64,000 nt of DNA from a virus: positions 32,001-96,000 of IMG/VR virus record IMGVR_UViG_3300025073_000027; one strand, 5' to 3'. Each line of letters starts with the position of its first letter. Positions within the stretch are counted from its first letter, which is position 1. The notes beneath the pieces were generated by a model that was given only the letters and a program-made list of their open reading frames with translations, was not told the DNA's origin and made no database searches. A program made the position numbers and the translations under genes. Positions 12,753 through 33,731 of the stretch are shown piece by piece.

Positions 12753-12873
12753 TAGATGGCGACAAGAATAGCTAACTTGTTGAAAAGGGGATTCTCTTCC
12801 TAATCCCCTCCATTTGTTTTTTTAATTTGAGGAAGAATAATTGATAAGAAATATAAAAGGAAGAATGAAATAA
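12753..12873 (+). promoter_or_regulatory. endonuclease-leader RNA element A (3-stem junction, loop complementary to the SD)
   Basis: P1 12753-59/12810-16; P2 CGACAAG/CTTGTTG; AAAA; P3 GGGGATT/AATCCCC; loop CTCTTCCT matches AGGAAGA at 12830-36 and 12858-64. Confidence 0.65.
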
Positions 12874-14247
12874 ATGACTAGTGGAATAAGATATACAGAA
12901 GAACAAGTTATTGATATGATTGAAAATTTTGGTTGTAAATTAGAGAGTTCATATTTGGGAGCAAGAAAAGATGTAACAATAATTTGTGTTTGTGGAAGAA
13001 GATTTACAACTAAATTCTATCGGTTTATAGATAAAAATAATACTCATAGATGCTCAACTTGCGCTAAAAAAATTGCTGCCAAAAAATTAAGGAGTGATTT
13101 TGATGAATTAGTTAGAAATTGTGAAAGTATTGGTTATTTTTATATAGAGGGTGAATATACAACTCGAAATTCACAATTGATATTTGAAGATAGTGAAGGA
13201 TATAAATATAGAGTATCTTATGCTTCAATTTATCATATTTTACAAGGTAAAGTGAAACGTTTGGAAATGTTTAGTTATAATAATCCTTTTACTTTTGAAA
13301 ATATGAAAAATTGGTTAAAGATAAATAAAAACGATTTTGAAATATTGGGTGGTCATTATACAACAAGGAATTCGACATTAATTTCTTATTGTAAAATTTG
13401 CTATAATGAATTTAATTCAAGTTGGATTAATTTAAAAAGTAGAAAATTTTGTCCAGAATGTGAAATAATGGCAATGTCAGATAGATTTAGGTTTAGTGTT
13501 GATAAAGTTAATGAAATTTTAAAAAACGCCGGATATTATTTGGTAAATGGAAATTATGAGGGTTGGGATTCTAAAATGAATCTCGTAGATGATTTTGGTT
13601 ATGAATATTTTTCTTCTATAAATTGTATAATCAAAGGTAGGCTTTCTACTTTTGGAAAAGGAAATCCTTATACCGTTAGTAATATTTGTAAATGGATAGA
13701 AATAAACGAAAAAAATTATAAGTATGTAAAAGGTAAATACATTAATGCGAGAAAGAGAAATTTAATTTTTAATTGTAATAAATGTAAAAACGATTGGAAA
13801 ACTTGTTGGAATGCGATTGAAACTGGTAATTCTTGTCCTAGATGTGGAAATTATTCAAAAGGTGAAACTCGAATAGAAAAATTTTTGTTGAATAATAATA
13901 TTTCTTATGAGAGAGAATATTGGTTTCCTGATTGCAGAAGGTTAATACGTAAACCGTTGGAATTTGATTTTGCAATATTTGATAAAAATAAAAAAATTAT
14001 GATGATCTGCGAATATGATGGTGAGTCCCATTTTATGCCTGTGGATTATGCTGGTAGGGGAGAAGAATGGGCTAAAGAGCAATTAGAGTTATCAAAAGTA
14101 AAAGATGAAATCAAAAATAAATATTGTAAAAATAAGGGTTATAGTTTACTTAGAATCCCTTATTGGGATTTTGATAATATTGAAAAAATACTTGAAGAGG
14201 CATTAAAACCAATTCCATGCCTTAACTTTCAAGGAAAGGAGGTTTAA
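12874..14247 (+). CDS. free-standing homing-endonuclease-like protein (Zn-ribbon repeats plus C-terminal PD-(D/E)XK/Vsr-like nuclease)
   Basis: Repeated CxxC modules; SKGE..I...L, FDFAI, EYDGESH, LLRIPYW; inserted between terL and portal. Confidence 0.75.
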   Translation: MTSGIRYTEEQVIDMIENFGCKLESSYLGARKDVTIICVCGRRFTTKFYRFIDKNNTHRCSTCAKKIAAKKLRSDFDELVRNCESIGYFYIEGEYTTRNSQLIFEDSEGYKYRVSYASIYHILQGKVKRLEMFSYNNPFTFENMKNWLKINKNDFEILGGHYTTRNSTLISYCKICYNEFNSSWINLKSRKFCPECEIMAMSDRFRFSVDKVNEILKNAGYYLVNGNYEGWDSKMNLVDDFGYEYFSSINCIIKGRLSTFGKGNPYTVSNICKWIEINEKNYKYVKGKYINARKRNLIFNCNKCKNDWKTCWNAIETGNSCPRCGNYSKGETRIEKFLLNNNISYEREYWFPDCRRLIRKPLEFDFAIFDKNKKIMMICEYDGESHFMPVDYAGRGEEWAKEQLELSKVKDEIKNKYCKNKGYSLLRIPYWDFDNIEKILEEALKPIPCLNFQGKEV

Positions 14248-15860
14248 TGGCTCCAAGAAAAAAGAAAATTGAAACAGAAATAATTACTTCGGAAAATGAA
14301 GAAATTCTTCTTGATAAAGGAACTGTGTGGGATGTTTTAACTTTTGCAAGAAATTTAGTTGGGGGAATGTATCCCGGTTTAATTACGCCAGATTTGATTA
14401 ATGCTCGTATGAAGGATGTTTCTTATTCTCCTCTCGCTGCCACGAGTGATAGTTTAAATCGCGCATTAGCTAATCCAAAAGAATCAGAAGAATCGCTTCG
14501 GAGTTTTATTGAAAATTTTGAAATAGTTTCGATGCCATTTAAGCGAATTTTATCTTATATGTCATCACATTTATCGATGGATCTTCAATATACTGTTACT
14601 AATCCAAAAGTTGATTATAAAAGTACAAAATTTAAAACAGATCAAAGTTCGGTATATGGTTTTTTTGATAAATTTGATCATAAATATTATTTTCGCAATG
14701 CAATCAAACAAATGCTTCGTAATGAATTGTATTTTGCTTCAGTAAGAGATGAAGGAAATAAAATAGTATTACAAGAATTACCATTGCAATTTTGTAAAGT
14801 GACTGCTCGATGGGATTACGGACTCTTGGCATCGTTCAATTTTTATTATTTTTTAATGCCTGGAATAGATATTGATTTATTTCATCCATTTTTTAAAAAG
14901 AAATTTAATGAAATACATAATGGAAGAAATAGAGAATATAACCCTTCCTTGCCCGTAGAATTACGTGGTAACTCACAAGATTACTATTGGGTAGATTTGC
15001 CGCCTGATGTTTGTTGGGTTTTTAAACTTGATACATCTTTAATTACGGCTGTTCCTTATTTTACTGGAATGATGCCTCTTTTGGTGGATGAAGGAATCAT
15101 GAGGGGGCTTCAAAAAGACATAAACATGGCAAGTGCTTCAAAAATGCTATTTGGAGAAGTCCCATTATTGAAGGATACTAAAGCCAGCGTCAAAGACATG
15201 ATTGCGATTGATCCTCAAACACTTGGACAGTTTTTAAGTCTTGTAAAATCGAGTTTAGGGAATGCGGTGAAATTGGGATCTGCACCTTTGCAAAATATGA
15301 CTGCGATATCATTTGATGGCAATGATGAACTTTTGGATAAATGGACTCGAACCATGATGAGTAATTCAGGAATGGATACATCTTTGTTGTATTCTTCTCA
15401 AGTAAAAGCTAATCTTATTGATTCACAATTGAGTTTTGAAAGTGATAGTAAGATAGTAGAACAACAACTTTATCCTCAAATGGCATTGTTTCTTGATTAT
15501 TGGGCAAATAAGAATCTTAAACATTATAAATATGTGTTTCGATTAGAAGGTAATGATTATTATCTTAATCGTCAACAAAGATTTGATCGAGCTATTCAAT
15601 TGGCTGGTTTAGGAATGGTAATGCCTCAATTGTTTTCATCATCGTTGGGTTTAAAACCGCAAGAATTTTATCGAATGCTGGAAGAATCAAAGGCGTTAGA
15701 ATTTGTAGATAAACTAACTCCCATTATACCGGGTTCTCAATTGTCTGGTAAAGAAAATGGACAAGGCAGGCCTCAAAAAAGTGACGATGAATTGGGGGAC
15801 TCTGGCGCACAAACTAGAGAAACGGGGGGGAATATTGCTTCGAAAGGTGGAAAAATATAA
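14247..15860 (+). CDS. portal protein
   Basis: 537 aa, follows terL; acidic/Gly C-terminal tail with GRP; synteny with SPbeta yonE. Confidence 0.75.
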   Translation: MAPRKKKIETEIITSENEEILLDKGTVWDVLTFARNLVGGMYPGLITPDLINARMKDVSYSPLAATSDSLNRALANPKESEESLRSFIENFEIVSMPFKRILSYMSSHLSMDLQYTVTNPKVDYKSTKFKTDQSSVYGFFDKFDHKYYFRNAIKQMLRNELYFASVRDEGNKIVLQELPLQFCKVTARWDYGLLASFNFYYFLMPGIDIDLFHPFFKKKFNEIHNGRNREYNPSLPVELRGNSQDYYWVDLPPDVCWVFKLDTSLITAVPYFTGMMPLLVDEGIMRGLQKDINMASASKMLFGEVPLLKDTKASVKDMIAIDPQTLGQFLSLVKSSLGNAVKLGSAPLQNMTAISFDGNDELLDKWTRTMMSNSGMDTSLLYSSQVKANLIDSQLSFESDSKIVEQQLYPQMALFLDYWANKNLKHYKYVFRLEGNDYYLNRQQRFDRAIQLAGLGMVMPQLFSSSLGLKPQEFYRMLEESKALEFVDKLTPIIPGSQLSGKENGQGRPQKSDDELGDSGAQTRETGGNIASKGGKI

Positions 15861-15871
15861 GGACATTTCTT

Positions 15872-15976
15872 ATGAAACTTACTCCTATGGATTGGTTAAA
15901 TAGACGTAAAGCGAAGAAAGAAGTTCCAAAAGAAATTCCGAAACAAAGTAATAAAGAGAAAAATAAAAATAAGTAA
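15872..15976 (+). CDS. possible 34-aa basic peptide (not in ORF track)
   Basis: AAGGA SD; MKLTPMDWLNRRKAKKEVPKEIPKQSNKEKNKNK; its stop abuts an ATAAAA-N6-TTTTAT site. Confidence 0.4.
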   Translation: MKLTPMDWLNRRKAKKEVPKEIPKQSNKEKNKNK

Positions 15977-15993
15977 TAAAAGACAAATTTTAT
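15976..15993. repeat. ATAAAA-N6-TTTTAT palindrome (spacer GACAAA)
   Basis: Exact copy. Confidence 0.7.
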
Positions 15994-16087
15994 TTGTTTT
16001 ATAAATAACAATAAATTTATAGATAACGGTATTGAAAGATGCTGGCCTCGTCTATAAAACTATAAAAAATAATGGAGGAAAAATTTC

Positions 16088-16414
16088 ATGGCTATTTCGA
16101 GTACAAACGTTACAAGATTGAACAAGATGAATCGTGCTGCTAAAGATGCATTGCTTGGAACTCGTTTACAACTATGTGGTGTAATTTCTGGTTCTGTTGG
16201 TGTTTCTACGGCACAGCAAACCGGAAGTGCGGTGACTGTTTATGATGCTCTTGCGACTCAAGGTGGTTATTTGTTTAGTATAAGCACCAATGGGAGTCCT
16301 TTAGACTTGGTGGCTGGATTTAGGGCTGCTCGTTCTGGTGGAAGTCTTACTATCGTTCCCCATGCATCAGGCAGTTACACGGTGGGAGATGCGGTAAATT
16401 ATATAATCTGGTAA
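16088..16414 (+). CDS. putative head decoration / structural protein
   Basis: GGAGG SD; Gly/Ser/Ala-rich beta protein in the head cluster. Confidence 0.55.
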   Translation: MAISSTNVTRLNKMNRAAKDALLGTRLQLCGVISGSVGVSTAQQTGSAVTVYDALATQGGYLFSISTNGSPLDLVAGFRAARSGGSLTIVPHASGSYTVGDAVNYIIW

Positions 16415-16471
16415 TATTAGATAGTATTTATCATAATATTAATCTTATAATTTAATAAGGAGTAAAAAAAT

Positions 16472-16672
16472 TTGTATATAATTTCTCCTACTCAAGATCA
16501 AATAGATGAATGGTTTTGTTGCAAGAAAAAGGTTGCTGAATTTTTAGTTAATGAATGCAAAATGCCACTTATACATAAAAATGAAAATAAATATTATTTT
16601 GCTATTACTAAAAAATTAAATGAGGCACTTGATAAAGTTCCATTATGGATGAAATTCTTAGAATTGCTTTGA
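16472..16672 (+). CDS. small hypothetical protein
   Basis: AAGGAG SD, TTG start. Confidence 0.6.
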   Translation: MYIISPTQDQIDEWFCCKKKVAEFLVNECKMPLIHKNENKYYFAITKKLNEALDKVPLWMKFLELL

Positions 16673-16735
16673 GTTATAAAATATTTGTAGAGAAAGAGAA
16701 ACACTTCCTTTCTCTTGAAAGGAGGTATATATTGG

Positions 16736-18421
16736 GTGAATAAAACTGATATAAATAAAAATATACTTAGTTTTGCTGTTGAAAATATTAGTTTATTAAA
16801 AGATGAAGAAAAATCCCAATTCGCTGAGTTACAAGTTGATGCTTTTGCAACCGGAAAATCTTTACATGATACATATGTATCAGAAGAAACGTTAAGAAAA
16901 ACTGCTCATACAATTTTACATAAACCATTTGTTTTTGCTGTTGATACTAGATTCGATGACATTTCAGGCCATCATAAGAAGGAGATACCAGGCGGCTTTG
17001 TCCCTGCCAATAGCCCTCTAGTATTTAAAACACTAGAAGATGGTCGCATTATGCTATCTTGTCATGTCCTTGTTTGGCGTAGATATAGTGGTAAATTATT
17101 GGAATATTTTGTTCGAGATGGAAATCGAAAAGGTGTTTCGGTTGAAATAGAAATTTATGAACAAGAAAAACGTTCAGATGGTTTAACTGAAATTTTAGAC
17201 TTCTGCTATTTTGCAATAACGGCATTGGGTGATTTGATTCGAAGTGCTATACCAAATGCTCAAGCAATTTTACAGTTTTCTCAGGAATATGAGAAAGCAG
17301 TAGAAGAACTTGAATTTGGTCGTTATGACGAAGTTGATTTAAAGATACCACGAAAAGTTAAAAAGAATGCTGAAAAAGCGTTGGAACTTTATAAACAACT
17401 TGGCAAAGGTGGCAATTCACAATCACTTGCTAATGCTAGATATTTGATTTCTAATAATGTAATTGAACCAAATAGAGTACGTAAAATAGCAACACGTAAA
17501 CCCAAAAACATTGAAATAGATGATGAAACAAGTAATGATTATATTTCTAATGGTCTTTGGGGTGGAATTGAAGGTTGGATGTGGGCAAATAAAATTGTTG
17601 ATAAATTAAATGATGTAGATGATAAAACAATGTCTTACTTTGATGATAATGGGGAAAATAAAATTGAAAAAGTAGGCGATCCTGAAAGTAAGGAGGTAGT
17701 TTCTGTGACAGATGAAGAAAAATTAAAACAAGAATTTTCTGAGGATGAAGATCCGAAAGAAGATGAAAAGCAAGAAAAGAAAGAAGTTGAAAAACTTTCT
17801 GAAGAGGAAGAAAAACAACCTACTGAAGACGAAAAGGGAGAAGAAGAGGAAAAAGAAGAGAAAGAAGAAAAAGAGGAAAAGAAAGAATATTCTCTTGATG
17901 CTAATTTTATTGCTGATGCTTTGGAATTTCTTAAATCTGAAACTGATGAATATCAAGTTTTAGTTACTGAATTTTCTGAAGAAGGTGGTAAAAATTTTGC
18001 TACTCTTGCTTATGCTTTGTTCGCTAAAGCGAAAGAAGTTCAAGAGATGTGCAATAAATATGCTGCTGAAAAGTCTGAAATGGAAGAAGGATGCAAGGCA
18101 CATATGGCAGAAAATGAGGAATTGAAGAAATATAAGGCTGAAAAAGAGCAAGAGCAATTTACTTTTGCTGTTGATGCTGTTTTGAAGCATATTGAAGAAA
18201 AAGCCGAAATTCCTGCTGATGAATTAGAAAATTTGAGGGAAAAATCAAATGAATATAGTTTAGAGACTTTTGATGCTTGGTCGAATATGGCTAAGGCCAG
18301 GGGTTTAGATTTTGCTGCTAAAGATAAGAAAGAAGATAGTAATGGTATTGTACGAATTGGTTTACCGAATATGCCATTTACTAAAGTGAAAGTAAGTAAT
18401 TCCCCTTGGGAACGTCAATAA
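16736..18421 (+). CDS. prohead protease-scaffold fusion
   Basis: In-frame GTG at 16736 after AAGGAGGT; KGVSVEI protease-like motif; acidic coiled-coil C-terminal half; precedes capsid genes. Confidence 0.7.
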   Translation: MNKTDINKNILSFAVENISLLKDEEKSQFAELQVDAFATGKSLHDTYVSEETLRKTAHTILHKPFVFAVDTRFDDISGHHKKEIPGGFVPANSPLVFKTLEDGRIMLSCHVLVWRRYSGKLLEYFVRDGNRKGVSVEIEIYEQEKRSDGLTEILDFCYFAITALGDLIRSAIPNAQAILQFSQEYEKAVEELEFGRYDEVDLKIPRKVKKNAEKALELYKQLGKGGNSQSLANARYLISNNVIEPNRVRKIATRKPKNIEIDDETSNDYISNGLWGGIEGWMWANKIVDKLNDVDDKTMSYFDDNGENKIEKVGDPESKEVVSVTDEEKLKQEFSEDEDPKEDEKQEKKEVEKLSEEEEKQPTEDEKGEEEEKEEKEEKEEKKEYSLDANFIADALEFLKSETDEYQVLVTEFSEEGGKNFATLAYALFAKAKEVQEMCNKYAAEKSEMEEGCKAHMAENEELKKYKAEKEQEQFTFAVDAVLKHIEEKAEIPADELENLREKSNEYSLETFDAWSNMAKARGLDFAAKDKKEDSNGIVRIGLPNMPFTKVKVSNSPWERQ

Positions 18422-18469
18422 TATTTTATTTTAAAAATTTAGATAATTTATAGGAGGTAAATAATTACT

Positions 18470-19018
18470 ATGGCTTATGGTGTAGTGATCCCAAATAAAA
18501 TTGAAGCAACTAATCGAGAAGTTCTTAATCGAACTGTTGTAAGTGCTTCTGCAATTGAAAATGGAAGTGTTTTTGCTCTTGATAGTAAGTCTGCCGTTAG
18601 TGGTTATGGTGAAGTATGGACTGCCACTTGGCCCACAACTGGTTCATTAACTGGTGTGTGGATGGCTATGACCCCTGAGGTTGTAAATGTTGCTGCTGCT
18701 GATGGTACGGTTTATCGTGGTATTAATGCTGATCCTCGTAACTTTACTAATTCGGCTTCTGCAATTATTGATGCTGTGAAACTTCAGCCTGGAGACATTA
18801 TTACTTTATCCTCGGATGCGTTTACCGGTGCTTATGCTGCTGGTTCTACTCATGCTACTGCGGCTTTTCAGAATTGGCAGTTGCAGTGGAGGGCTTTTGA
18901 CCCTGGTGATGCTCTTACTTTGAAGTATCTTTCGACTACATATATTCCAATTGGTAGTGGTAGTGCTATTGGAGATACTCGTCTTGCTGCTTATAAGTGC
19001 GAAGTAATTCGGAATTAA
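18470..19018 (+). CDS. head decoration / minor capsid protein
   Basis: Between scaffold and major capsid; IENG and GDIITL motifs. Confidence 0.6.
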   Translation: MAYGVVIPNKIEATNREVLNRTVVSASAIENGSVFALDSKSAVSGYGEVWTATWPTTGSLTGVWMAMTPEVVNVAAADGTVYRGINADPRNFTNSASAIIDAVKLQPGDIITLSSDAFTGAYAAGSTHATAAFQNWQLQWRAFDPGDALTLKYLSTTYIPIGSGSAIGDTRLAAYKCEVIRN

Positions 19019-19109
19019 TTTTATAAATAGATAAATTAATTTTGAAATAATTAATAATTAAATTTGTGGTTTTTATAGTTAATAAAATAATAAGGAGGAT
19101 AATCTAAAT

Positions 19110-20222
19110 ATGATTCCTAGCAATGTTTTAAAATTCGCTACTAAAGATAATCTTGGTGTTTATGAGAAGTTTCAAGATTATTACAATCATTATCGGTCTA
19201 TAAATGAAAAGAAATCTTTTACTTTTTCTGAAAAAGACACCGAAGGGAATCCAATTACATTTGCGGAAAAAGAATTAATGATGAGTGCTGCATTGAAGCG
19301 TGAAATTATGCGCGTAGCAGGTATTCAGAATTTTGAACAATTTCCGTTAGAACAATGGGTTACAAATCCCATGTTAAATTGGGCGACTTTTGCAGTAATA
19401 AGCGGTCTTGTTGAAGTGGTTATTCCAGATGTAATTTTTGATAGTTTTGGTTTGTTTACTGATATCAAAAATATTGGGTGGGGTGATAGTGCATTATTTG
19501 AAGTTGAAAGCAATGGACTGTTTACTGTTTCTAAAGCTGGTCGCGCTCAAAGAACGACTGAAATGTATAAAGAGTTTAAGGGCAATGTTTCGATTGTTCC
19601 TGAGCCTCGTCAGTTGACTGTTGGTGTAAGTTTATATCGTGTACTTTCGGGTGCAGAAAGTCTTGCTCGTTTCGTTTCAAAACTAATTTTGTCTCTTGAA
19701 AGTCAGATGACTATTGATGTATATAATGCATTTGTTACTTTAATGAATGGTCTTCCTACGACTACTACTACGGGTTTACAGGTTTCTGGTTATTCTGAAA
19801 CAGATTTACGCAGAATTTGCGCTCAGATTGAAGCTTGGACTCGGACTAAACCAATGGTGGTTGGAACAAGTCTTGCTCTCGCGAATGTTCTTCCTTCAAC
19901 GGATGTGAATTATCGTTGGGATCTTGGAACAAGTGAATATTCTCGTTTAGGTTATATGCAGACTGCTTGGGGATACAATATGCTTGCTTTACCCAATATT
20001 GCAGATCATACAACTGAATGGGCAAGAGTTATTAGTGATTCTTATCTTTGGATTCTTGCTCCTGCTTCTGGTAAACTTTTGAAATTGGTTCTTGAAGGCG
20101 CTACTTTGTCGAATACTGATAGTGTATTTGAAAACGGTAACTTGCTTCAGAGGTCAACCATGATTAAGAGTTATGGAATTGGAGTTGTTACTAATTCCTT
20201 GGCTGGACTTATTGCTCTCTAA
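19110..20222 (+). CDS. major capsid protein
   Basis: 370 aa, strong SD, followed by a strong hairpin; synteny with SPbeta yonB. Confidence 0.75.
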   Translation: MIPSNVLKFATKDNLGVYEKFQDYYNHYRSINEKKSFTFSEKDTEGNPITFAEKELMMSAALKREIMRVAGIQNFEQFPLEQWVTNPMLNWATFAVISGLVEVVIPDVIFDSFGLFTDIKNIGWGDSALFEVESNGLFTVSKAGRAQRTTEMYKEFKGNVSIVPEPRQLTVGVSLYRVLSGAESLARFVSKLILSLESQMTIDVYNAFVTLMNGLPTTTTTGLQVSGYSETDLRRICAQIEAWTRTKPMVVGTSLALANVLPSTDVNYRWDLGTSEYSRLGYMQTAWGYNMLALPNIADHTTEWARVISDSYLWILAPASGKLLKLVLEGATLSNTDSVFENGNLLQRSTMIKSYGIGVVTNSLAGLIAL

Positions 20223-20256
20223 AGATAGAATTTTTATAATTTAATAGTTTTATTAG

Positions 20257-20298
20257 TTGTCATGCAGATAAGTATAAATCTACTTATCTGCATGATAA
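20257..20298 (+). terminator. strong hairpin after the capsid gene
   Basis: TTGTCATGCAGATAAGTA-taaatc-TACTTATCTGCATGATAA. Confidence 0.6.
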
Positions 20299-20352
20299 AT
20301 TAATTTTTATAAATAGATAATTATAGATAAATAGATAAAAGGAGATTTTATA

Positions 20353-21057: not shown

Positions 21058-21077
21058 TATTATAGAAAGGAGGGCAA

Positions 21078-21533: not shown

Positions 21534-21542
21534 GGAGGATAA

Positions 21543-22580: not shown

Positions 22581-22582
22581 GT

Positions 22583-22695
22583 AGATAGGTTTCATCTGAT
22601 CAATGAAACTGAAAAAGGATGGTTTTCCCTCTAATCATCCTTTCTTTAATTTAATTATATTTATGAAAAAGAGGGAAATAATTGGAGGGAATATA
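22583..22695 (+). promoter_or_regulatory. endonuclease-leader RNA element B
   Basis: P2 GGTTTCAT/ATGAAACT; GAAAAA; P3 GGATGGTT/AATCATCC; loop TTCCCTCT matches AGAGGGAA 22670-77 and SD GGAGGGAA 22684-91. Confidence 0.65.
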
Positions 22696-23472
22696 ATGAT
22701 AATTAATGGCGATATGGTGAGCAATATAATTATAAGTGGTATTTATTGCATTGAGAATATTATTGATGGTAAAAAATATATTGGATATTCAGAAAATATA
22801 TATAAACGATGGAAATTTCATATTATGAATTTAAATGGTAATTATCATAAAAACGCTTATTTGAATCATGCCTGGAATAAGTATGGAGAAGAAAATTTTA
22901 AGTTTTGGGTAATAGAAGAATATATTAATGATCCACAATTATTGAAATTAATGGAAACTTATTTTATTGTTTATTATGAATCTTTTATAGATTTTGGGAA
23001 AGGATATAATTTAACATTGGGAGGAGAAGGATTATTTAATATTTCTAATTTAACTAGGAAAAAAATGTCTAAAAAAGGAATTAATAATCCTAATTATGGA
23101 AGAAAAGTATCATTAGAAGTTAGAAAAAAAATGTCTAATACACATAAATTATTAACTTTTTCAGAAAACCATCGAAAAAATCTTTCTATATCTGTAACCA
23201 AATATTTAAATGAAAATCGGGAAAAATATATTGGTGAAAACAATCCATTTTACGGAAAACAACATTCAGATGAACAAAAACAAAAATGGTCTGAAATGCG
23301 TAAAGGTAAAAGAAATGGTGGTGAAAAATTGAGTGTTGAAAATGTAATAGAGATAAAAAAAATGTTAATGAATGGAATAATGGGATGTGAAATTGCTAAA
23401 ATCTTTAATACATCTAAATCTAATATATCAAGTATTAAAAATGGTTTAACTTGGGGAGATATAATATTATGA
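22696..23472 (+). CDS. free-standing GIY-YIG homing endonuclease with NUMOD3 repeats and C-terminal HTH
   Basis: SGIYCIEN..KKYIGYS, R...H, E, GYNLT.GG, NPFYGKQHS; probable start ATG 22696 after GGAGG. Confidence 0.9.
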   Translation: MIINGDMVSNIIISGIYCIENIIDGKKYIGYSENIYKRWKFHIMNLNGNYHKNAYLNHAWNKYGEENFKFWVIEEYINDPQLLKLMETYFIVYYESFIDFGKGYNLTLGGEGLFNISNLTRKKMSKKGINNPNYGRKVSLEVRKKMSNTHKLLTFSENHRKNLSISVTKYLNENREKYIGENNPFYGKQHSDEQKQKWSEMRKGKRNGGEKLSVENVIEIKKMLMNGIMGCEIAKIFNTSKSNISSIKNGLTWGDIIL

Positions 23473-26315: not shown

Positions 26316-26734
26316 TGGCACAAAGAGTTAGCCAGACTGGGATCATTGTTGAATACACAGTTGATGACCATGCAATCCGGGCAAGTCAGACCGGTGTAAT
26401 CATTGAGTATGAGCCACAACCTGGCTGGCAGGTGTCACAGGCTGGCGTTGAGACAGCCTGGATACCACAACCGCCTCGTGAAATCTCAGTCTCACAGGCA
26501 GGCATTGAGATTGGGCAACAGCCCGAATATACTGATGTGCTGGTATCACAGGCTGGTATTGATGTTGCGTGGATACCATTTGTTGATACAACGGGTGAGA
26601 TTTATATCTATTTAACGCATTTAGGAACAACTATATTAGAAGATGGTATTTATTCCTTTGGATGTAGATTGGATACACAATATGATTACAGTGGGAGTGC
26701 AATTTATCAATATGGTGTAGATTGGGAACATTAA
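26315..26734 (+). CDS. structural protein with five (V/A)SQ(T/A)G repeats
   Basis: RVSQTG, RASQTG, QVSQAG, SVSQAG, LVSQAG. Confidence 0.6.
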   Translation: MAQRVSQTGIIVEYTVDDHAIRASQTGVIIEYEPQPGWQVSQAGVETAWIPQPPREISVSQAGIEIGQQPEYTDVLVSQAGIDVAWIPFVDTTGEIYIYLTHLGTTILEDGIYSFGCRLDTQYDYSGSAIYQYGVDWEH

Positions 26735-26747
26735 TGGGAGAATTAAA

Positions 26748-28505
26748 ATGAGCGATTACACACCTTTACCGGGAGATAGAAGCCCATATAAAACAAATAT
26801 TGCAGGAGTTCCACATGCTGATGATTGGGATGATGGTGATAGTCATCATGCGCCTATAACCTTGGGGAGTGGAGGAGATTCAGCATTATCTTTAGATGGG
26901 CAAGAATTAACATTAGCAGATGTTCTTACTCCTACTGAACATACTGCTATTGGCAATGGTTCTCCTCATCATGCGCCTATAACGTTGGCAGATGGAAGTT
27001 CTGGATCATTAATAGGACAAGAACTTGATTTAACTGGACTTGTTGAACATCCAATTATTTTAGAGACATTATCAATTTTAACGATATCTAGTGGATCTTG
27101 TACGGTAAGTAAGGATTATCACATTATTGCTGCCGAGTCTGGGACTACAGATGATCTCGTTACTATCAATGGGGGAGTAGATCGTCAAGTATTAGCAATC
27201 CAAGCAGATGCAGGTGATACCATTACAGTCAAGCATGGAACAGGTAATGTTTATCTGAATGGTGAAGCTGACTTTGATCTATCTGGAGACAAGAGTTTAT
27301 TGTTATTTTATGATGGAACAAATTGGAGTGACTTGGGTGCTGGTGGGAGTAGTGGAGTGTTAGTCGATCACGATCATTCTGGCGATGTTGGAGATGGTGG
27401 TACATTTGATGCGGCTAATTTAACCAGTGGTAGTGCAAGTGTTGGTGATGTGTTAACTTCTGATGGTGTAGGTGGAGCGGCATGGGAAGCATCAGCAGCA
27501 GGTATTGATCCTTATGATCTTGATCCGGAAGCAAATGGAGTAGCTGATCCTGGTACATCGGGTAGTTATAGTCGTGGTGATCATGTTCACACTTCGGGAT
27601 CGGGTGATGGCGATATGACTAAAGCAGTTTACGATATTGATGCTAATGGGGTTATAGATATTGCAGCAGGAGGAACAGGTGCAACTACTGCTCAGGCTGC
27701 AATTGATGCATTGACTAATGTGTCAGCAGCTACAAATGAACATGTGTTAACTAAAGATACAACAACAGGTAGTGCAATATTTAAAGAGGCGGCCAGCGGA
27801 AGTGGCGATAGCACCTATACAGATGCTTATGCCAGCAGGCCAGCGGCGAGTAATGATGGGGATTTATTCTTTCCAAATGATAGCTTTTATGTTCAACGGG
27901 ACACCGGAGCAGCTTGGGCATCCTGGGGTCCTATATTCCCATTAACACCGCTAGTAAATGATGATTTCGCATGGGTCAATCAGGGTGATGCAACTGTATC
28001 AGTGGTGAATGGCGGAGTATATTTAGAAAAGCCAGCAGCAACCGGGCAAAGTTTGAGAATACGAAAAAAGGCAGTACCATCCACGCCTTATACAATAGAT
28101 GTTTTAATGATACCAACCAGAGCGCCCGTCCAAGTGGCTGAATGGGGTATAGGTTGGCGACAGAGTAGTGACGGAAAATTGGCAGTATTGATGTTTCAGA
28201 CAAGCGTAACGCCTAATGTAACTGTATATTCTGGAAAATTCACTAATGAGACAACATGGAGCGCGGTATATCCTTCAGCGACTCTAGCATTAACTTCGTG
28301 GAATGTACCTCCTATATTTTGGAGGATTGAAGATAACGCGACCAACCGGATTATTAGTTATTCATGGGATGGGATACACTTTATGCCGTGGCACAGTATA
28401 GGGCGAACTGATTTTTTGACTGCCGATGAAGTTATTTTCTATGTATGTCCAAACCATGCAACAAATAAAATTGGTTTGAACATTCTAAGTTGGAAAGAGG
28501 CATGA
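26748..28505 (+). CDS. tail fibre protein
   Basis: GDVLTSDG.GGAAW, RGDHVH, GGTGATTA..A...L fibre motifs; duplicated HHAPITL; distinct C-terminal domain. Confidence 0.75.
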   Translation: MSDYTPLPGDRSPYKTNIAGVPHADDWDDGDSHHAPITLGSGGDSALSLDGQELTLADVLTPTEHTAIGNGSPHHAPITLADGSSGSLIGQELDLTGLVEHPIILETLSILTISSGSCTVSKDYHIIAAESGTTDDLVTINGGVDRQVLAIQADAGDTITVKHGTGNVYLNGEADFDLSGDKSLLLFYDGTNWSDLGAGGSSGVLVDHDHSGDVGDGGTFDAANLTSGSASVGDVLTSDGVGGAAWEASAAGIDPYDLDPEANGVADPGTSGSYSRGDHVHTSGSGDGDMTKAVYDIDANGVIDIAAGGTGATTAQAAIDALTNVSAATNEHVLTKDTTTGSAIFKEAASGSGDSTYTDAYASRPAASNDGDLFFPNDSFYVQRDTGAAWASWGPIFPLTPLVNDDFAWVNQGDATVSVVNGGVYLEKPAATGQSLRIRKKAVPSTPYTIDVLMIPTRAPVQVAEWGIGWRQSSDGKLAVLMFQTSVTPNVTVYSGKFTNETTWSAVYPSATLALTSWNVPPIFWRIEDNATNRIISYSWDGIHFMPWHSIGRTDFLTADEVIFYVCPNHATNKIGLNILSWKEA

Positions 28506-28597
28506 AACCCATTACCCACATCTTCATCGCCGCACAGTTCGCAGACATCGCTATGACAATTACTGGAATGGGCCAAGGGTGCAAATATTTTAAATAA
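28502..28597 (+). pseudogene. truncated GC-rich homolog of the downstream membrane protein
   Basis: MKPITHIFIAAQFADIAMTITG aligns with WLIIAQFLDILTTFIG of 28739..29071, then degrades into AT-rich sequence. Confidence 0.6.
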
Positions 28598-28674
28598 TAA
28601 GTTTAATATTAAATAAAATATAATAATTTTTTATATTGAACATTACAATATAAATAATAATTAATAATATATAA

Positions 28675-28692
28675 ATAAAATATTGATTTTAT
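28675..28692. repeat. ATAAAA-N6-TTTTAT palindrome (spacer TATTGA)
   Basis: Exact copy, but within a very AT-rich spacer region. Confidence 0.5.
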
Positions 28693-28738
28693 TACAAAAT
28701 TGTCAAGGTCTTGTTAATAAGGATAACAATAATAAATA

Positions 28739-29071
28739 ATGATAAATTATAATAAGATACAAAATAATATATTTAAACATCCTTTTTATATTAGAATAAT
28801 AAATTTAAAAAGGGTATCTTATTGGTTAATTATAGCACAATTCTTAGATATACTAACAACTTTTATTGGTGTTAGTTTAATGGGATTGATGGAATTAAAT
28901 CCTATGGGATTTACATTTCAAATAGTAATGTTAAAAATATTAATAACTTTTTTAGTGGTATATGTATTAGAACATGAAAAATATTTTAAATTTATGTGGG
29001 CTGTTCCAATTACAGTATTAATATTTCCTTTATGGAATTTATTAAATATTGTTTTAGATTTAATATTATAA
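28739..29071 (+). CDS. DUF5658-like membrane protein
   Basis: D..TT..G...G..E.NP motif; three hydrophobic segments. Confidence 0.65.
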   Translation: MINYNKIQNNIFKHPFYIRIINLKRVSYWLIIAQFLDILTTFIGVSLMGLMELNPMGFTFQIVMLKILITFLVVYVLEHEKYFKFMWAVPITVLIFPLWNLLNIVLDLIL

Positions 29072-29095
29072 TGGTAAAAAAAATAAATGGATTAA

Positions 29096-29127
29096 ATTGC
29101 TACGCATATTCATTTATGCGTAGCAAT
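29096..29127 (+). terminator. stem-loop
   Basis: ATTGCTACGCATA-ttcatt-TATGCGTAGCAAT; no clear U tract. Confidence 0.45.
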
Positions 29128-29160
29128 ATATTAAATTTGAAAAAGAAAGGAGGATAATGG

Positions 29161-29703
29161 ATGCCAGAATATAATCAATATGAACAATTGCCAAATCTTC
29201 CTTATAATTGTATAAAATATTTAATGGAAAATAGTGAGTTGGCATTCCGCTTACTTCAATATAATGACGGAAACGCCTGGAAACTAGATGTAACTCATCC
29301 TAATTTAACAACTGCTGAAAAGGGTGCGTTAATTTATGATGGAGTTAAAAGTCAAACTGATTGTAGAATATTTATGACTGCGGGAATTGATAGTGCTTGG
29401 ACTGAACAAGTTTGTCAATTACGCATTAGTATTCTTGAGGTTTATCCTTCTAATCATATTGTTGGTAATGTATTAATAGGAATGGAAGTATATCCTCATG
29501 CTTTAGTATCTCAACTTTCAAATTATACTACGCGAGCAGATTTAATGATACAAGAATTGATACGTGTATTTAATGGGGCAGAAATAGGTGGATTAGGATA
29601 TTTATTTTTTGATGCTTCCAAAAATTCACGTTGTAGGATGATGTCGATTGGTGCATCTCCTTTTATTGGAAAAGCAATTTCTTTCGCTAATTGGGTAATT
29701 TAG
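29161..29703 (+). CDS. putative tail terminator/completion protein
   Basis: Position before the major tail gene; FNG...GGLG.L.F motif. Confidence 0.5.
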   Translation: MPEYNQYEQLPNLPYNCIKYLMENSELAFRLLQYNDGNAWKLDVTHPNLTTAEKGALIYDGVKSQTDCRIFMTAGIDSAWTEQVCQLRISILEVYPSNHIVGNVLIGMEVYPHALVSQLSNYTTRADLMIQELIRVFNGAEIGGLGYLFFDASKNSRCRMMSIGASPFIGKAISFANWVI

Positions 29704-29716
29704 GAGGTGTTCATGG

Positions 29717-30562
29717 ATGGATGATATCGAAAAGATATATGATTCCAAGAGAGATTTATGGGGGCAAGCACAAATTTATAAAAATATAAATTTTTATCCC
29801 ATACGATTAAAAGATACTCATGCTCAAAATCTTTATTATAAATTGTTTCAATATCCTAAAAATTTTATTAATGAAAAACAAATAGTTAAAGCAAGTTATT
29901 TGAAATATTTATTATTATTTATTCAACAATCTATGAATCCTGATGGCAGGGAAATCCAAGACGGATTGATAGATTTTTTAAAATTGGTAACTCAAAGCGA
30001 AAAAATAGAAATAGAATATAAATTGATAAATATACCAGATGAGCAGAAACAAGATATATTAAATCGAATGGTAATAACCATAGATATAGATGGCATTATT
30101 TTCACAGAAAAAGATTTCGATATTATTAGAGAAATTATTCTTAGGCAAAATGGTTTATCGACAAAATTTATAGAAGAATATAATCCTGAATTAGAAAGAC
30201 ATTTACAATATGTGAATAGCAAATTCGATGATCTTTCTTTAGAAGATGAAGTGATTTTATTTTCTGTAATGATGGGTAAAAACTTAATGGAAATAGAAAA
30301 TTATACTCTTTATCAATTTCGTAAGAGTATGGAAAGATTATTGTTGCTACATAATTTTGATTTATATAGTCCTTTAGAAATATCTGGGCAAATAAAAAGT
30401 AAAGATGGATCAGAAATTGTAAAACATTATTTTTCGGCTATTAATAAAAATTCAGGTAGATATTCAAATATTATGATAGAAAAAGATGAATTTTTGAATA
30501 GTAATCCATATTTACCAGATGAAAATGGTGTAATACGAGATTCTATGGGAAGTGTAAAATAA
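29717..30562 (+). CDS. putative tail assembly protein
   Basis: FDIIREIILRQN and IENYTLYQF motifs; position. Confidence 0.5.
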   Translation: MDDIEKIYDSKRDLWGQAQIYKNINFYPIRLKDTHAQNLYYKLFQYPKNFINEKQIVKASYLKYLLLFIQQSMNPDGREIQDGLIDFLKLVTQSEKIEIEYKLINIPDEQKQDILNRMVITIDIDGIIFTEKDFDIIREIILRQNGLSTKFIEEYNPELERHLQYVNSKFDDLSLEDEVILFSVMMGKNLMEIENYTLYQFRKSMERLLLLHNFDLYSPLEISGQIKSKDGSEIVKHYFSAINKNSGRYSNIMIEKDEFLNSNPYLPDENGVIRDSMGSVK

Positions 30563-30630
30563 ATTATTAAATATTAAATTTAGTAATGTATAAATAAATT
30601 TAATATAAGAAAAAAGGAGAAAAAAATAAT

Positions 30631-31662
30631 ATGGCAAATCAATTTTTAGTTAGTGTTGCAGATGCAATTGGGCGGGATGCTTCTACAGGCGATTTACTTT
30701 TTGTAGGTAAGGCAAATATATCTTCAAGTTTTACAATGTCCACCCAAAAGACTGAAGTGCGTGGTGGTATTGGTAATGCTATTTTGTATACTTATTATCA
30801 TGATAAGGCTTTGGAAGTTAAAATTGAAGCTGCTACATTCGAAAAATCATTACTTGCTTTAAATGCTGGAACTACGGTTGTAACTGGTAGCACTACTGTT
30901 GTAAAACAAGAATCTGTTACATTAGTTGCGGGTGTTGGTACTGTGACTGAAACTCCTACTGGTGGTAAAGTTAGTGTTTTACTTCCTGATGGAAGTATTC
31001 AGAATTTAACTCCAAATGGAAGTGAAATTACTGTTTCTGGTGGTGCTGCACAAACTGTAACTGCTATTTATGAATATACTGATACTGATGCACAATATGT
31101 AACTGGCTTTTCGACTTTACCTCCTACTGGCATTGATCTTACTTTAATTAGTGAAGTGCGAAATGCTGCTACAACTCTTGAATATTATTTTGTAATTAAT
31201 GTTCCGAACTTCAATGTTTCTGGTAACTATACAATGGCGTTGTCTGCCAATGGTGTTTCTCAGCAATCACTTGATGGTATGGCTGCTGTAACAACTGATG
31301 CGGCAGGAGATTATTATTTTAAAGCATATTGGATTCCTACTACTACAACTACCGCTGTTGCATATACTGATATTGCTGCAACTCCTTCGGTAATTACTTT
31401 TTCTGCTGCTGATCTTCCCGATACTCAGCAATTAAGTGTATTAGGCATTAAGGGTGGAATTTATGCAAATGTTAATATTACTACTTCATGTACTTTTGAG
31501 GTAACTTCTGGTTGTACGGATGTAATTTGGTCTGGTAGTACGGGTGTAATTAGTGCGTGTGCTACTGCTATTGAAAATGATGCTGCTGTGGTTGAGGTCT
31601 CATATTGGGACGTAACTAGCGGAAGTTTGAGCGACACCATGAATGTCGCAATTGGAGCATAA
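30631..31662 (+). CDS. major tail (tube) protein with C-terminal Ig-like domain
   Basis: EVRGGIGN motif; Thr/Ala-rich; strong SD; downstream hairpin. Confidence 0.75.
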   Translation: MANQFLVSVADAIGRDASTGDLLFVGKANISSSFTMSTQKTEVRGGIGNAILYTYYHDKALEVKIEAATFEKSLLALNAGTTVVTGSTTVVKQESVTLVAGVGTVTETPTGGKVSVLLPDGSIQNLTPNGSEITVSGGAAQTVTAIYEYTDTDAQYVTGFSTLPPTGIDLTLISEVRNAATTLEYYFVINVPNFNVSGNYTMALSANGVSQQSLDGMAAVTTDAAGDYYFKAYWIPTTTTTAVAYTDIAATPSVITFSAADLPDTQQLSVLGIKGGIYANVNITTSCTFEVTSGCTDVIWSGSTGVISACATAIENDAAVVEVSYWDVTSGSLSDTMNVAIGA

Positions 31663-31683
31663 TCATCAATATTGTTTTTTATA

Positions 31684-31711
31684 AAGTAGGAACATTTATT
31701 TGTTCCTACTT
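31684..31711 (+). terminator. hairpin after the major tail gene
   Basis: AAGTAGGAACA-tttatt-TGTTCCTACTT. Confidence 0.55.
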
Positions 31712-31740
31712 ATCAATTTTTATAAAAAGAGGTGGCATAT

Positions 31741-32196
31741 ATGACAGACGGTTATAATAGTTGCAACGCGCCTTGTATTTGGATAGAAAATTTATCGAAA
31801 AGAGTAGATAAAATGGAGGATACATTTGGTAATGTTAATAATAAAGTAATCGATATTGATAAAAGATATTCTCTTACTGAAATATTATTAGCTAAATTAG
31901 AAGCGGCATTTACCAATAATACAAATGCGATAATTAGTATTGAGAAGACTATGATATCGATGCAAAATGATATAAAAAATAATGCTTATACTACAATGCG
32001 AATTGAAAGAGAAGTAGGTGAAATAAAGGAAAAATTTGATGCGGCAGAAGAAGTAGCTAAATTAGATTTAAGAGTTGTTTTTAAAAGATTTATTGATAAT
32101 AAAGTTACTTGGATTTTAGGAGGGGGTATTACGATAGTTACTTTATTGGAATTATTAAGTCGTATAGATTGGGATAATTTATCTAAGGCTTTTTAA
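31741..32196 (+). CDS. coiled-coil protein with C-terminal TM segment (possible lysis accessory)
   Basis: GAGGT SD before ATG 31741; heptads then WILGGGITIVTLL. Confidence 0.5.
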   Translation: MTDGYNSCNAPCIWIENLSKRVDKMEDTFGNVNNKVIDIDKRYSLTEILLAKLEAAFTNNTNAIISIEKTMISMQNDIKNNAYTTMRIEREVGEIKEKFDAAEEVAKLDLRVVFKRFIDNKVTWILGGGITIVTLLELLSRIDWDNLSKAF

Positions 32197-32272
32197 TTAT
32201 TAAAATATTTAGAAATAATTATAAAATTATTAAATAAATTTTATTGAATTATAAATTATAAAAGGATAAGAT

Positions 32273-32866
32273 ATGTCTGAGGTAGAAGAAATAAAGTTAA
32301 ATAAATTGAATATTGTTTTTTCAGATCAAGAAAGTGAAGAATTTAAATTTCAGGGTAATATAATTATAGTAATTCCATATATATTTATTGGCGAAAAAAT
32401 AGGTTTAATTCGGGAATATATAAATAATTTATTTGATGAATTTGAATATGATTTAGCAAAAAGATATATGGTAGCAGAATATGCTTTAATCCTTCAACTT
32501 ATAGAAGGACAGACTAATGTTGAAACAGATAAATTAGATGTTGATAAATTAATATCATCTAAATTATGGGAACAAATTAAATCTAGATTATTGAATTATG
32601 ATGAATTTCGAGAAGAATTAAATCGAGTATTGGAATTACGACAAGCACAAGAAAGTTTAAATAAATCGGTTGGTACAATATTAGAACAAGTTTCTGTAAA
32701 AGCGATAGATCTTTTAAATAAAATAAGTGAAATGGATGTTGAAAATTTCAAAGATGTATCGGCTGAATTTTCTAAACAACTTGAAGTATTGAATGAAAAT
32801 TTACCTGGAATTACAAAAAAGGCTTCTGTTTCTACGCCAAAAAGAAAATATACAAAAAAATCTTAA
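32273..32866 (+). CDS. hypothetical protein (possible tail chaperone)
   Basis: ORF track; position. Confidence 0.5.
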   Translation: MSEVEEIKLNKLNIVFSDQESEEFKFQGNIIIVIPYIFIGEKIGLIREYINNLFDEFEYDLAKRYMVAEYALILQLIEGQTNVETDKLDVDKLISSKLWEQIKSRLLNYDEFREELNRVLELRQAQESLNKSVGTILEQVSVKAIDLLNKISEMDVENFKDVSAEFSKQLEVLNENLPGITKKASVSTPKRKYTKKS

Positions 32867-32876
32867 TAATAAATAA

Positions 32877-33092
32877 ATGGATACTTTGATGAATGACGAT
32901 GCTGTAAAGGTACTTAAAAAATTAAAGTACGAATGTCCCGATTGTGGGGAGAGGAAATTAATTGTAATAATGGTGAAAAAACCTCATAATGGCATTATTT
33001 ATACTGAAAAAATGATCATTTGCCAAGAATGCGATTATAGAACACCTTTCAAAAAAAAGAATGAGAAGAAATTAGAATTTGAAGATAATTGA
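32877..33092 (+). CDS. Zn-ribbon protein
   Basis: CPDC...CQEC. Confidence 0.6.
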   Translation: MDTLMNDDAVKVLKKLKYECPDCGERKLIVIMVKKPHNGIIYTEKMIICQECDYRTPFKKKNEKKLEFEDN

Positions 33093-33111
33093 TAGCAAGA
33101 GGAGGTAATTC

Positions 33112-33612
33112 ATGTTTGATAATGATGTTGCTCTAAATGCTGCAATTATGCAAGATTTGATTTCTATCGTTGATGTAGTTACTGATAAATTACATGAGGA
33201 ATTAAAGAAACTTATTAAAAAGATTGTCTATGATCCATATACTCCAAGAGAATATAATCGTCAAGGAAATAATGGAGGTCTATTGGATGAATGGGATAAA
33301 AAAGACCCCGTTGTGGCAGGTAATGTTGTTTATGCAGAAATATTTGAAGATCCTGCTCGTTTAAATGTTGATCCTGCTACTTTTGTACATGGTAGTAATT
33401 TTTGGATTATGAGTGATATAAGACAATTATTGGCAGAAATAGTTATTGAGGGTAAAAGTGGAAGTTTATTTGACTTTGGACAGCCGCCTCACTTTTGGAA
33501 AAGTCCTCGGAATTTCTGGATTGTATTTGTAAAATTATTGGGAGATGGAACAGTAGATAGGATGATTGAAATGGAAATGAAAAAAAAAGGTATTCCTTTT
33601 ATAAAATTATAA
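33112..33612 (+). CDS. putative tail completion/neck protein
   Basis: VY.PY.P..Y.R and PRNF motifs; GAGGAGGT SD. Confidence 0.5.
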   Translation: MFDNDVALNAAIMQDLISIVDVVTDKLHEELKKLIKKIVYDPYTPREYNRQGNNGGLLDEWDKKDPVVAGNVVYAEIFEDPARLNVDPATFVHGSNFWIMSDIRQLLAEIVIEGKSGSLFDFGQPPHFWKSPRNFWIVFVKLLGDGTVDRMIEMEMKKKGIPFIKL

Positions 33613-33623
33613 TTGATGGATTT

Positions 33624-33731
33624 AAGGGGCTAAATTGACGAATTGAAAAGATGTTTTATCACCTCAAACATCCTGCCCCTTTTAGATTTGATTTAAGAGG
33701 TGAGATAAATAATAATATAGAGGTGATAATA
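33624..33731 (+). promoter_or_regulatory. endonuclease-leader RNA element C
   Basis: P1 AAGGGGC/GCCCCTT; short P2 AATT/AATT; GAAAA; P3 GATGTTT/AAACATC; loop TATCACCTC is the exact complement of SD GAGGTGATA 33720-28; second match GAGGTGA 33697-703. Confidence 0.7.

Follow-up and report, generated by a model that had tools for sequence, protein, structure and literature searches.

Few mobile genes are as common in phages as those for homing endonucleases, and to our knowledge how these stay tolerable to their hosts is understood in detail for only a handful of T4-type genes. One account (PMC2988022) describes T-even homing endonucleases (I-TevI, I-TevII, I-TevIII, segB and Aeh1 mobE) whose ribosome site is sequestered in an RNA hairpin, and another (PMC2677866) describes the free-standing endonucleases of 'fractured genes', which have single hairpins with a T4-type late-promoter motif upstream. 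The subject here is an RNA leader that precedes three homing endonuclease genes (A, B and C) in a 64,000-nucleotide (nt) stretch of virus DNA, referred to below as the window, which corresponds to bases 32001-96000 of the 137,722-base pair (bp) IMG/VR record IMGVR_UViG_3300025073_000027 (29% G+C). The original prediction for this DNA was that one portable leader layout precedes unrelated endonucleases and that a loop within it covaries with the ribosome-site region of each gene. Both points hold up, as relatives of the leader are followed by at least four nuclease families and the covariation is seen both in the window and across several dozen unrelated virus contigs.

The T-even hairpins and these leaders have in common that a structure in the leader RNA pairs with the ribosome site of an endonuclease gene, presumably limiting translation. 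As described in PMC2988022, the T-even leader is a simple local hairpin that contains the site, with an embedded late promoter as the escape and no conserved sequence family. In contrast, the leaders considered here possess a conserved three-way junction some 40-60 nt upstream, a pseudoknot reached through a loop, two boxes, a self-complementary second loop and, in many relatives, a promoter of their own. Their boxes pair with a loop located 25-65 nt upstream rather than with an adjacent strand as in a T-even-type hairpin; the leaders had been predicted to be distinct from simple T4-type hairpins, and the conserved junction and the loop-reached boxes set them apart. In the cassettes of fractured genes the leader structure likewise travels with the endonuclease, and the 3' end of the cassette starts the next gene, as is the case for gene A and the portal gene in the window, while no junction, loop-box pairing or palindromic loop is described for those hairpins in the passages of PMC2677866 that deal with them. 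A full-text literature search, with supplements outside its scope, found no description of the leader. Sequestration of the ribosome site of homing endonucleases is known, and what appears from these comparisons to be new is a distinct, conserved three-way-junction RNA with two targets.

The three genes lie on the plus strand and encode a 457-residue protein with matches to phrog_559, CapR and a DUF2726-like domain (gene A, 12874-14247), a 258-residue GIY-YIG protein with NUMOD3 (gene B, 22696-23472) and a 245-residue HNH-type protein of phrog_374 (gene C, 33732-34469). Leader A is predicted to form a three-way junction at 12756-12813, in which the closing stem P1 pairs ATGG (12756-12759) with CCAT (12810-12813). 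Stem P2 (12760-12766 with 12776-12782) carries the loop AATAGCTAA at 12767-12775, which holds the palindrome TAGCTA, and is joined by AAA to the 8-bp stem P3 (12786-12793 with 12802-12809), whose loop is CTCTTCCT at 12794-12801. The descending strand of the closing stem (P1') is followed by a T-rich tract (12814-12828), flagged together with P3 as terminator-like, and then by two copies of AGGAAGA, each complementary to the P3 loop: box 1 at 12830-12836 and box 2 at 12858-12864, the latter in the ribosome-binding region of the ATG at 12874. A possible -10 element, AATAAT (12744-12749), is located 6 nt before the TAGATGG motif; it has one mismatch to TATAAT and is weak alone, and relatives have clear promoters in the corresponding place.

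Leader B (22582-22643) begins with TAGATAGG at 22582-22589 and has a weak P1, in which two of the five modelled pairs are non-standard. Its P2 (22588-22595 with 22603-22610) has the loop CTGATCA (22596-22602) with the palindrome TGATCA, and its P3 (22614-22624 with 22633-22643) is an 11-bp stem with the loop TTCCCTCT at 22625-22632. Box 1 (AGAGGGAAA, 22670-22678) is followed by box 2 (ATTGGAGGGAA, 22681-22691) in the ribosome-binding region of the ATG at 22696, where 11 bp with the loop region, one of them G-U, can form; no convincing promoter was found upstream of this leader. Leader C is predicted to fold at 33624-33681 with the junction letters TA, GAAAA (33645-33649) and CT (33673-33674), a 7-bp P1 (33624-33630 with 33675-33681), a weak AATT/AATT P2 (33633-33636 with 33641-33644) and a P3 (33650-33656 with 33666-33672) whose loop is TATCACCTC at 33657-33665. 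Box 1 of leader C is GAGGTGA (33697-33703) and box 2 is GAGGTGATAA (33720-33729), in the ribosome-binding region of the ATG at 33732. An exact TATAAT (33608-33613), which overlaps the stop codon of the upstream gene, stands 10 nt before P1. The strands that join the stems contain TAGATGG and TGAAAAG in leader A and TAGATAGG and TGAAAAAG in leader B; in leader C, GAAAA is kept, GAUAGRU is missing and the first loop is not a palindrome. All the hairpins, junctions and boxes listed in the original prediction are present in the sequence, as are the palindromes given there for the first loops of A and B.

The P3 loop matches box 1 and box 2 over 7 and 7 nt in leader A, 9 and 7 contiguous nt in B, and 7 and 10 nt in C, with duplex energies of -10.2 and -10.1, -14.1 and -15.9, and -12.2 and -15.5 kcal/mol, respectively. 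In the minimum-free-energy folds of leaders B and C the P3 loop is paired with box 2. These matches go beyond chance. For each of 233 crudely called open reading frames (ORFs) in the whole 137,722-bp record, the loops of all perfect-stem hairpins in the 170 nt upstream were compared with the gene's own -24 to -3 region and scored by the longest Watson-Crick match. The three endonuclease genes rank at the top (C with 9 nt, B and A with 7 each), the runners-up are three genes with 6 nt, and 169 genes score 0. The position of the P3 hairpin is also similar in the three leaders, in that it starts 82, 82 and 88 nt upstream of the ATG.

Relatives of the leader were sought in 240 virus-contig loci that encode distant relatives (at most 50% identity) of the three nucleases. 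In 843 kb, a strict descriptor (hairpin, loop complement of at least 7 nt, second copy of at least 6 nt and start codon) gave 7 distinct sites, compared with 0, 0 and 1 when the sequence was block-shuffled three times. With a relaxed descriptor, to which a P2 hairpin 3-8 nt upstream was added as a requirement, the real sequence gave 18 sites and the shuffles 1 and 2. The matches sit on the nuclease strand directly before the nuclease start, and they have in common a closing stem, GATAGRT, a P2 hairpin with the loop AGTAATTAA, TTGAHAAG and P3. A 16-letter pattern taken from the conserved half had at least 120 matches in IMG/VR, with 84 distinct sequences among the matches listed. A script found the P2 stem in 50 of these 84, two of which were judged by eye not to be members, and a covariance model recognised 3 members among the other 34. 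Two loci with the pattern and without the fold (L296 and L337) and two real members (L309 and L344) were left out of the model seeds and the protein set.

Two covariance models were built from other genomes. Model R1 was derived from three unrelated virus contigs, all with TAATTA loops, and R2 from 62 matches, none of them from the window. With filters off and both strands of the window searched, the best R1 match is leader A (27.0 bits, E 2.5e-5), followed by leader B (14.4 bits, E 0.1). R2 placed leader B first (27.5 bits, E 0.0025) and leader A next (26.8 bits, E 0.0034), with the following match at 15.8 bits; elsewhere in the genome no R2 match had an E-value below 1.6. The E-values of both models are rough as calibration was shortened. 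Since models that never saw them score them significantly, leaders A and B are members of the family. Members of the family have, often after a promoter, the three-way junction (P1, GAUAGRU, P2 with its self-complementary loop, YGAHAAG and P3), which is followed by a U-rich tract, by box 1, by box 2 at the start codon and by the nuclease gene. A separate, weak match on the minus strand at 49928-49994 (R1, 14.2 bits, E 0.12; R2, 13.6 bits, E 2.4) has P1 and the letters GGGAUA, UGAUAAG and CUUCCC, lacks P2 and lies antisense within a plus-strand ORF; it is probably a chance match.

The fold itself covaries. Among 61 distinct rows of alignment A10, 95.7% of stem cells hold standard pairs compared with 69.2% in shuffles, and all 16 stem pairs show changes on both sides, counts that are biased towards the modelled structure in that A10 was fitted to it. 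The covariation score of 0.711 compares with 0.231 for shuffles and was reached by none of 500, and slid controls remained at or below 0.16. The variety of the closing stem is apparent in the raw sequence, where GGG/CCC, CGAGG/CCTCG and AATAAGA/TCTTATT all occur. The covariation of loop and boxes was assessed with 64 distinct leaders (61 model matches together with A, B and C) and the 110 nt downstream of each. In 36 of the 64, the loop matches its own downstream region over at least 7 nt, compared with 5.5% of 4,024 cross-leader pairs, and two separate boxes (of at least 6 and at least 5 nt) are found in 48 of the 64, compared with 13.5% across leaders. Matched changes involve loop and both boxes at once: the loop of L303, AAGTGTTTA, goes with TAAACAC twice, and that of L271, AAGCGTTTA, with TAAACGC twice. 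Likewise, the loop TTCTCTAC of L042 goes with AGTAGAGA(A) and the loop ACCTCTAC of L018 with (C)GTAGAGG.

The loop had been proposed to recognise the Shine-Dalgarno sequence. A large group of leaders has boxes unlike Shine-Dalgarno, such as GTTAGC, GTTGACA, TAAACGC and GTTTAGCA, which are nevertheless present twice; the second copy in this group is 0-9 nt before the ATG, and many of the boxes are not purine-rich and abut the ATG. The partner of the loop thus appears to be the translation-initiation region as such, a part of the proposal that stands, and not specifically the Shine-Dalgarno sequence. Box 1 and box 2 are about equal in length and strength across the 64 leaders, and since they are about equally long it follows that both are under selection.

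Model matches always lie on the strand of the nuclease gene. R1 matches were found at 20 of 80 loci of protein-A relatives, 3 of 80 for protein B and 3 of 80 for protein C, and R2 matches at 22 of 80, 4 of 80 and 2 of 40, respectively, though many of these rows were R2 training data. The leader is thereby present in 26 of the 240 virus-contig loci (R1); of the 84 distinct sequences among the pattern matches listed, about 50 have it. Downstream of the pattern-derived members are 44 distinct proteins (L293, L309, L337 and L354 gave no ORF of at least 70 amino acids), in which the domains found are NUMOD4 plus HNH_3 (16), DUF4379 (10) and GIY-YIG (5). Matches to PHROG families, whose sets may overlap, are to phrog_59 (17), phrog_559 (14), phrog_314 (7) and phrog_374 (3). 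Judged by these matches, the downstream genes span at least four nuclease families. Covariation of the fold, covariation of the loop with the boxes and the same-strand link to nuclease genes are directly supported by these data. Outside uncultured viruses, the 16-letter pattern occurs at 120 or more loci in cellular genomes, of which none of the 100 searched matches R2 at E<=0.001. Among cultured phages, two leaders had no blastn match at E<=0.01 in 50,697 phage records, and megablast of 15 kb of the window gave none in the cultured-phage search. As far as sampled, the family is confined to uncultured virus contigs.

Many members have signals of their own for producing the leader. A TATAAT with at most one mismatch is upstream of 52 of the 64 leaders compared with 46% of the background, and several leaders have a full TTGACA-17-TATAAT or an extended -10 element positioned for transcription to start at P1. 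Another motif, TAnnTTTG, is directly upstream of 10 of the 64 compared with 3% of the background; we take it to be a promoter motif of the Bacteroidota type, and it is often found upstream of the group whose boxes are unlike Shine-Dalgarno. Some members directly follow a transfer RNA (tRNA) gene in phage tRNA arrays (L339 615-760; L309 1416-1556; L095 at about 1150-1280), and tRNA processing could set the 5' end of the leader in those members. The prediction had located the leader inside a late operon, which does not fit the relatives, since these usually follow their own promoter or a tRNA gene, so that the element is better described as a cassette leader.

Among named RNA families, no entry of Rfam 15 passes its gathering threshold in the window or in 18 member loci, in line with the original prediction, which did not recognise the leader as a named family and called for this check. 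The sole relevant sub-threshold match in sensitive scans was int-alpA (RF02996), for which leader A has 14.0 bits and the gathering score is 35.8; for leaders B and C and for the whole genome int-alpA gave no match at E<=10, nor was one found in a canonical relative and 15 member loci. The int-alpA motif was reportedly described by Weinberg et al. in 2017. Its name is absent from the main text of the 2017 survey (PMC5737381). By eye, the int-alpA consensus has the same layout as the leaders: an 8-bp P1, UA, a short P2, GAAAA, a P3 with a ..CCUU.. loop, CU, P1', a U-run and ..AAGGG, the last of which can pair with its P3 loop as the leader boxes do with theirs. The junction letters TA, GAAAA and CT of leader C are those of int-alpA, and leader A shares GAAAA, the U-run and an AGG box with it. 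Unlike int-alpA, leaders A and B and their relatives possess GAUAGRU and a second box, their P2 loop is self-complementary and 9 nt long, and their AT-rich arms are longer. The gene context differs as well, by the name of the family alone, which implies a place between int and alpA-type prophage genes. Since int-alpA has the same layout and gives sub-threshold scores or none, it is regarded as related in architecture rather than as the family itself. The expectation that no named family covers the leader is therefore borne out at the Rfam threshold and qualified by an orphan motif with the same layout. Pseudoknots are known to bury the Shine-Dalgarno site in riboswitches and translational operators such as SAM-II, preQ1-II and the leader of T4 gene 32. 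The proposed occlusion in the endonuclease leaders is of the same kind, here with two alternative boxes and no match to an Rfam model.

The leader probably acts in cis, in that the P3 loop would pair with the ribosome region to form a pseudoknot that masks the ribosome site and holds translation down. In the proposed sequence of events, the leader RNA would fold as a three-way junction, and the apical loop of P3 would then pair with one of the two downstream boxes. Pairing with box 2 would give a pseudoknot that blocks binding of the 30S subunit and throttles translation of the nuclease, the junction and the U-tract may stop a portion of the transcripts, and the self-complementary P2 loop probably joins two leader RNAs tip to tip. 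Since box 2 covers the ribosome site, pairing there should hold translation down in the manner of the T-even hairpins, and most likely the leader keeps the endonucleases scarce. Box 1 could serve as a competitor, a second target or a stand-by site; the original prediction had taken it for a decoy, which is one possibility only, given that box 1 is about as strong as box 2. We infer pairing of the RNA in vivo, net repression and the roles of box 1, the U-tract and the P2 loop from the sequence patterns described above. The action as a switch and the protection against nuclease toxicity suggested in the original prediction may likewise apply.

Several observations weigh against this reading. The whole-leader minimum-free-energy z-scores are weak (-0.65 for A, -1.30 for B and -1.00 for C), and the stem pair counts carry the bias of A10 noted above. 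The near equality of the boxes would be unexplained if box 2 alone mattered; moreover, a pseudoknot at box 1 would free box 2, so that the sign of the regulation, repression or activation, is unreadable from sequence. A clear second box is missing in 16 of the 64 leaders, and 4 of the 64 have no match of at least 5 nt, where the misses include weak model matches admitted at E up to 0.5. R2 finds the family in none of five whole cultured-phage genomes at E<=0.1. Finally, leader C is not significant with either model (R1, 8.6 bits, E 4.9, rank 13; R2, 13.0 bits, E 3.2, rank 9). The claim that the three leaders have one architecture is thus supported by the models for A and B and by layout for C, which is not detected by them; leader C seems to be a divergent copy that shares the layout and falls below significance.

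The P2 loop and the tract after P1' bear on an unlikely alternative that overlaps with repression in cis, in which the leader is attenuated and acts in trans. Most transcripts would stop at the U-tract and release an RNA of about 65-70 nt, which would dock onto a full-length message through its P2 loop. Box 2 would then be covered by the P3 loop of the short RNA and box 1 by that of the message, giving dose-dependent repression. The 15 nt directly after P1' contain on average 8.3 T compared with 4.7 for the background (64 leaders), and this tract together with P3 and P1 resembles a terminator. A simple scan called leaders A (12786-12809) and B (22614-22643) terminator-like, as part of 10 sites in the region where shuffles lead one to expect 8.1. 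The look-alike int-alpA, with its U-run straight after P1', is typed as a small RNA in Rfam, and two boxes of about equal strength would suit the two loops of a dimer. As for docking, a 6-nt palindrome is found in the P2 loop of 59 of the 62 aligned members, with eight different words (TAATTA 46, TCATGA 6, TAGCTA 3, ATTAAT 2, TTCGAA 2, and TGATCA, TTATAA and AATATT 1 each), though both this count and the excess of TAATTA are biased by the TAATTA-loop seeds. TAGCTA in leader A, TGATCA in leader B and TCATGA each represent a paired change from TAATTA in which self-complementarity is kept. A branched junction would be unusual as a terminator. A pseudoknot, moreover, needs a single-stranded linker, and the U-tract may be no more than that.

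The dimerisation initiation site of human immunodeficiency virus type 1 (HIV-1) is a 9-nt loop with a central self-complementary word of 6 nt flanked by purines. The loop of leader A, AAUAGCUAA, has exactly this kissing-loop format; the dimerisation is predicted for a phage messenger RNA leader here, as opposed to a retroviral genome. An extension of the trans-acting scheme, which we hold to be somewhat more doubtful than the scheme itself, is that the leader serves as a dosage governor. Attenuated leaders would pair through P2 with nascent messages and contribute a second anti-ribosome-site loop in trans, one loop for each box, so that translation shuts off as genome copies, and with them leader RNAs, rise. 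This would be the logic of plasmid copy control achieved with a sense RNA and common to at least four unrelated nuclease families, and it would also explain int-alpA as the same device.

Alternatively, the leader could be a switch controlled by a ligand or protein, in which a small molecule, or a protein of the phage or its host, would bind the junction motifs GAUAGRU and YGAHAAG and so set the P3 loop on box 1 (on) or box 2 (off). Conservation within the leader is highest at the junction letters, with stems that vary freely, and two alternative partners of equal strength would suit a two-state device. Such a switch is nonetheless improbable: leader C and the int-alpA consensus have the same layout without GAUAGRU, the gene context suggests no ligand or protein, and conservation of the junction can be purely structural.

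A DNA-level operator is very improbable. The boxes, two direct and one inverted in the P3 loop, would be bound as double-stranded DNA by the nuclease or a repressor, by analogy to I-TevI, which according to PMC2988022 represses its own promoter via an operator that resembles its homing site; that the boxes vary from gene to gene would agree with this. Near-identical leaders and boxes precede different families, however, as seen in L271, where the protein has a GIY-YIG-type N-terminus, and L303, where it is of the NUMOD4 type, a contrast that counts against the boxes as protein-specific operators. In addition, the inverted copy always occupies precisely the apical loop of a stem whose covariation is that of an RNA, and the boxes are just 6-10 nt long and always over the ribosome site. 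Least credible of all is that these are ordinary terminators of the upstream genes with pyrimidine-rich loops that match Shine-Dalgarno sequences by chance, for while the simple scan does call A and B terminator-like and CCUCC-like loops do fit many ribosome sites, which is why cross-leader matches are not rare (13.5% for two boxes), the three genes top the genome-wide loop ranking, shuffles yield 0, 0 and 1 or 1-2 matches where the real sequence has 7 and 18, the covariation includes boxes unlike Shine-Dalgarno, all model matches lie on the strand of the nuclease gene, and none of the 100 cellular loci with the 16-letter pattern matches the model at E<=0.001.

A few other candidates were considered and rejected. 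A hammerhead or other ribozyme, brought to mind by the hairpin-GAAA-hairpin appearance, was set aside as the third junction letter can be A, U or C and no Rfam ribozyme (hammerhead, twister, pistol or hatchet) matches the window at its gathering score or the three leaders at E<=10; by eye, the joining strands of the leader do not fit what we take to be the hammerhead core. A group I intron was set aside as there is no Rfam intron match and the terminase gene is complete and then followed by the cassette. In leaders A and B, an upstream mini-ORF started by TTG after box 1 ends at or overlaps the ATG, which would allow coupling to the nuclease start; this idea was dropped because leader C and relatives have no such ORF. 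TTGAHA as a -35 promoter element was rejected in that no -10 element follows 16-18 nt on, a position occupied by P3.

The large terminase encoded in the window shares 35-39% identity with its counterparts in SPbeta-like and Thomasclavelia phages. In phage TR-TP1, the closest cultured relative, 13 nt separate terminase and portal, compared with 1,526 nt in the window, and leader A with gene A is therefore an inserted cassette. The ATG of the portal gene is overlapped by the stop codon of gene A (TAATG), and a strong AAGGAGG is located in the last codons of gene A (14225-14250). An essential downstream gene, that for the portal, thus takes its ribosome site and start context from inserted cassette A. 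Contigs of four DNA runs compared with positions 10900-15900 contained no reliable terminase-portal contig without the cassette, and in the single joint observed in them, between 11544 and 14109, the shorter side extends over only 21 letters. No RNA run is among the sequencing runs listed for this DNA. Pieces of many other contigs, from groundwater and soil DNA runs in which this phage occurs, match the 3' end of gene A (14145-14207), and nuclease genes related to gene A are apparently common in those samples.

In-frame ATG codons at 22603 (within P2 of leader B) and 33651 (within P3 of leader C) give rise to ORFs listed at 289 and 272 amino acids. Gene callers could choose these upstream codons and so hide the leader. 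Relatives align from the shorter starts; the start codon of gene C is supported by alignments with its relatives that begin at residues 1-3. Three further nuclease genes are encoded on the minus strand outside the window, at genome positions 112584, 124113 and 106100, two of them GIY-YIG and one phrog_374-like, and inspection of their upstream regions revealed no leader layout. Upstream of the gene at 112584 there is a weak R2 match (12.8 bits, E 4.1; L381 1098-1159) with an AAG...CTT hairpin and no boxes, which may be a decayed leader copy. Elsewhere in the window, an 18-bp perfect hairpin with a T-run at 20257-20298, after a 370-residue ORF (19110-20222, phrog_4088), looks like an ordinary strong terminator, with a layout unlike that of the leaders.

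If translation is truly held down by it, a single portable RNA leader common to at least four unrelated nuclease families would explain in general terms how homing endonucleases are tolerated. The leader may serve as an annotation marker for nuclease cassettes and their true start codons. If the favoured mechanism is true, the leader would represent a compact repressor that is programmed through the sequence of a loop directed at a ribosome site, and it would suggest a likely role for the orphan Rfam motif int-alpA. The self-complementary loop, in turn, hints at dimerisation of the RNA, which is rare in bacterial and phage messages.

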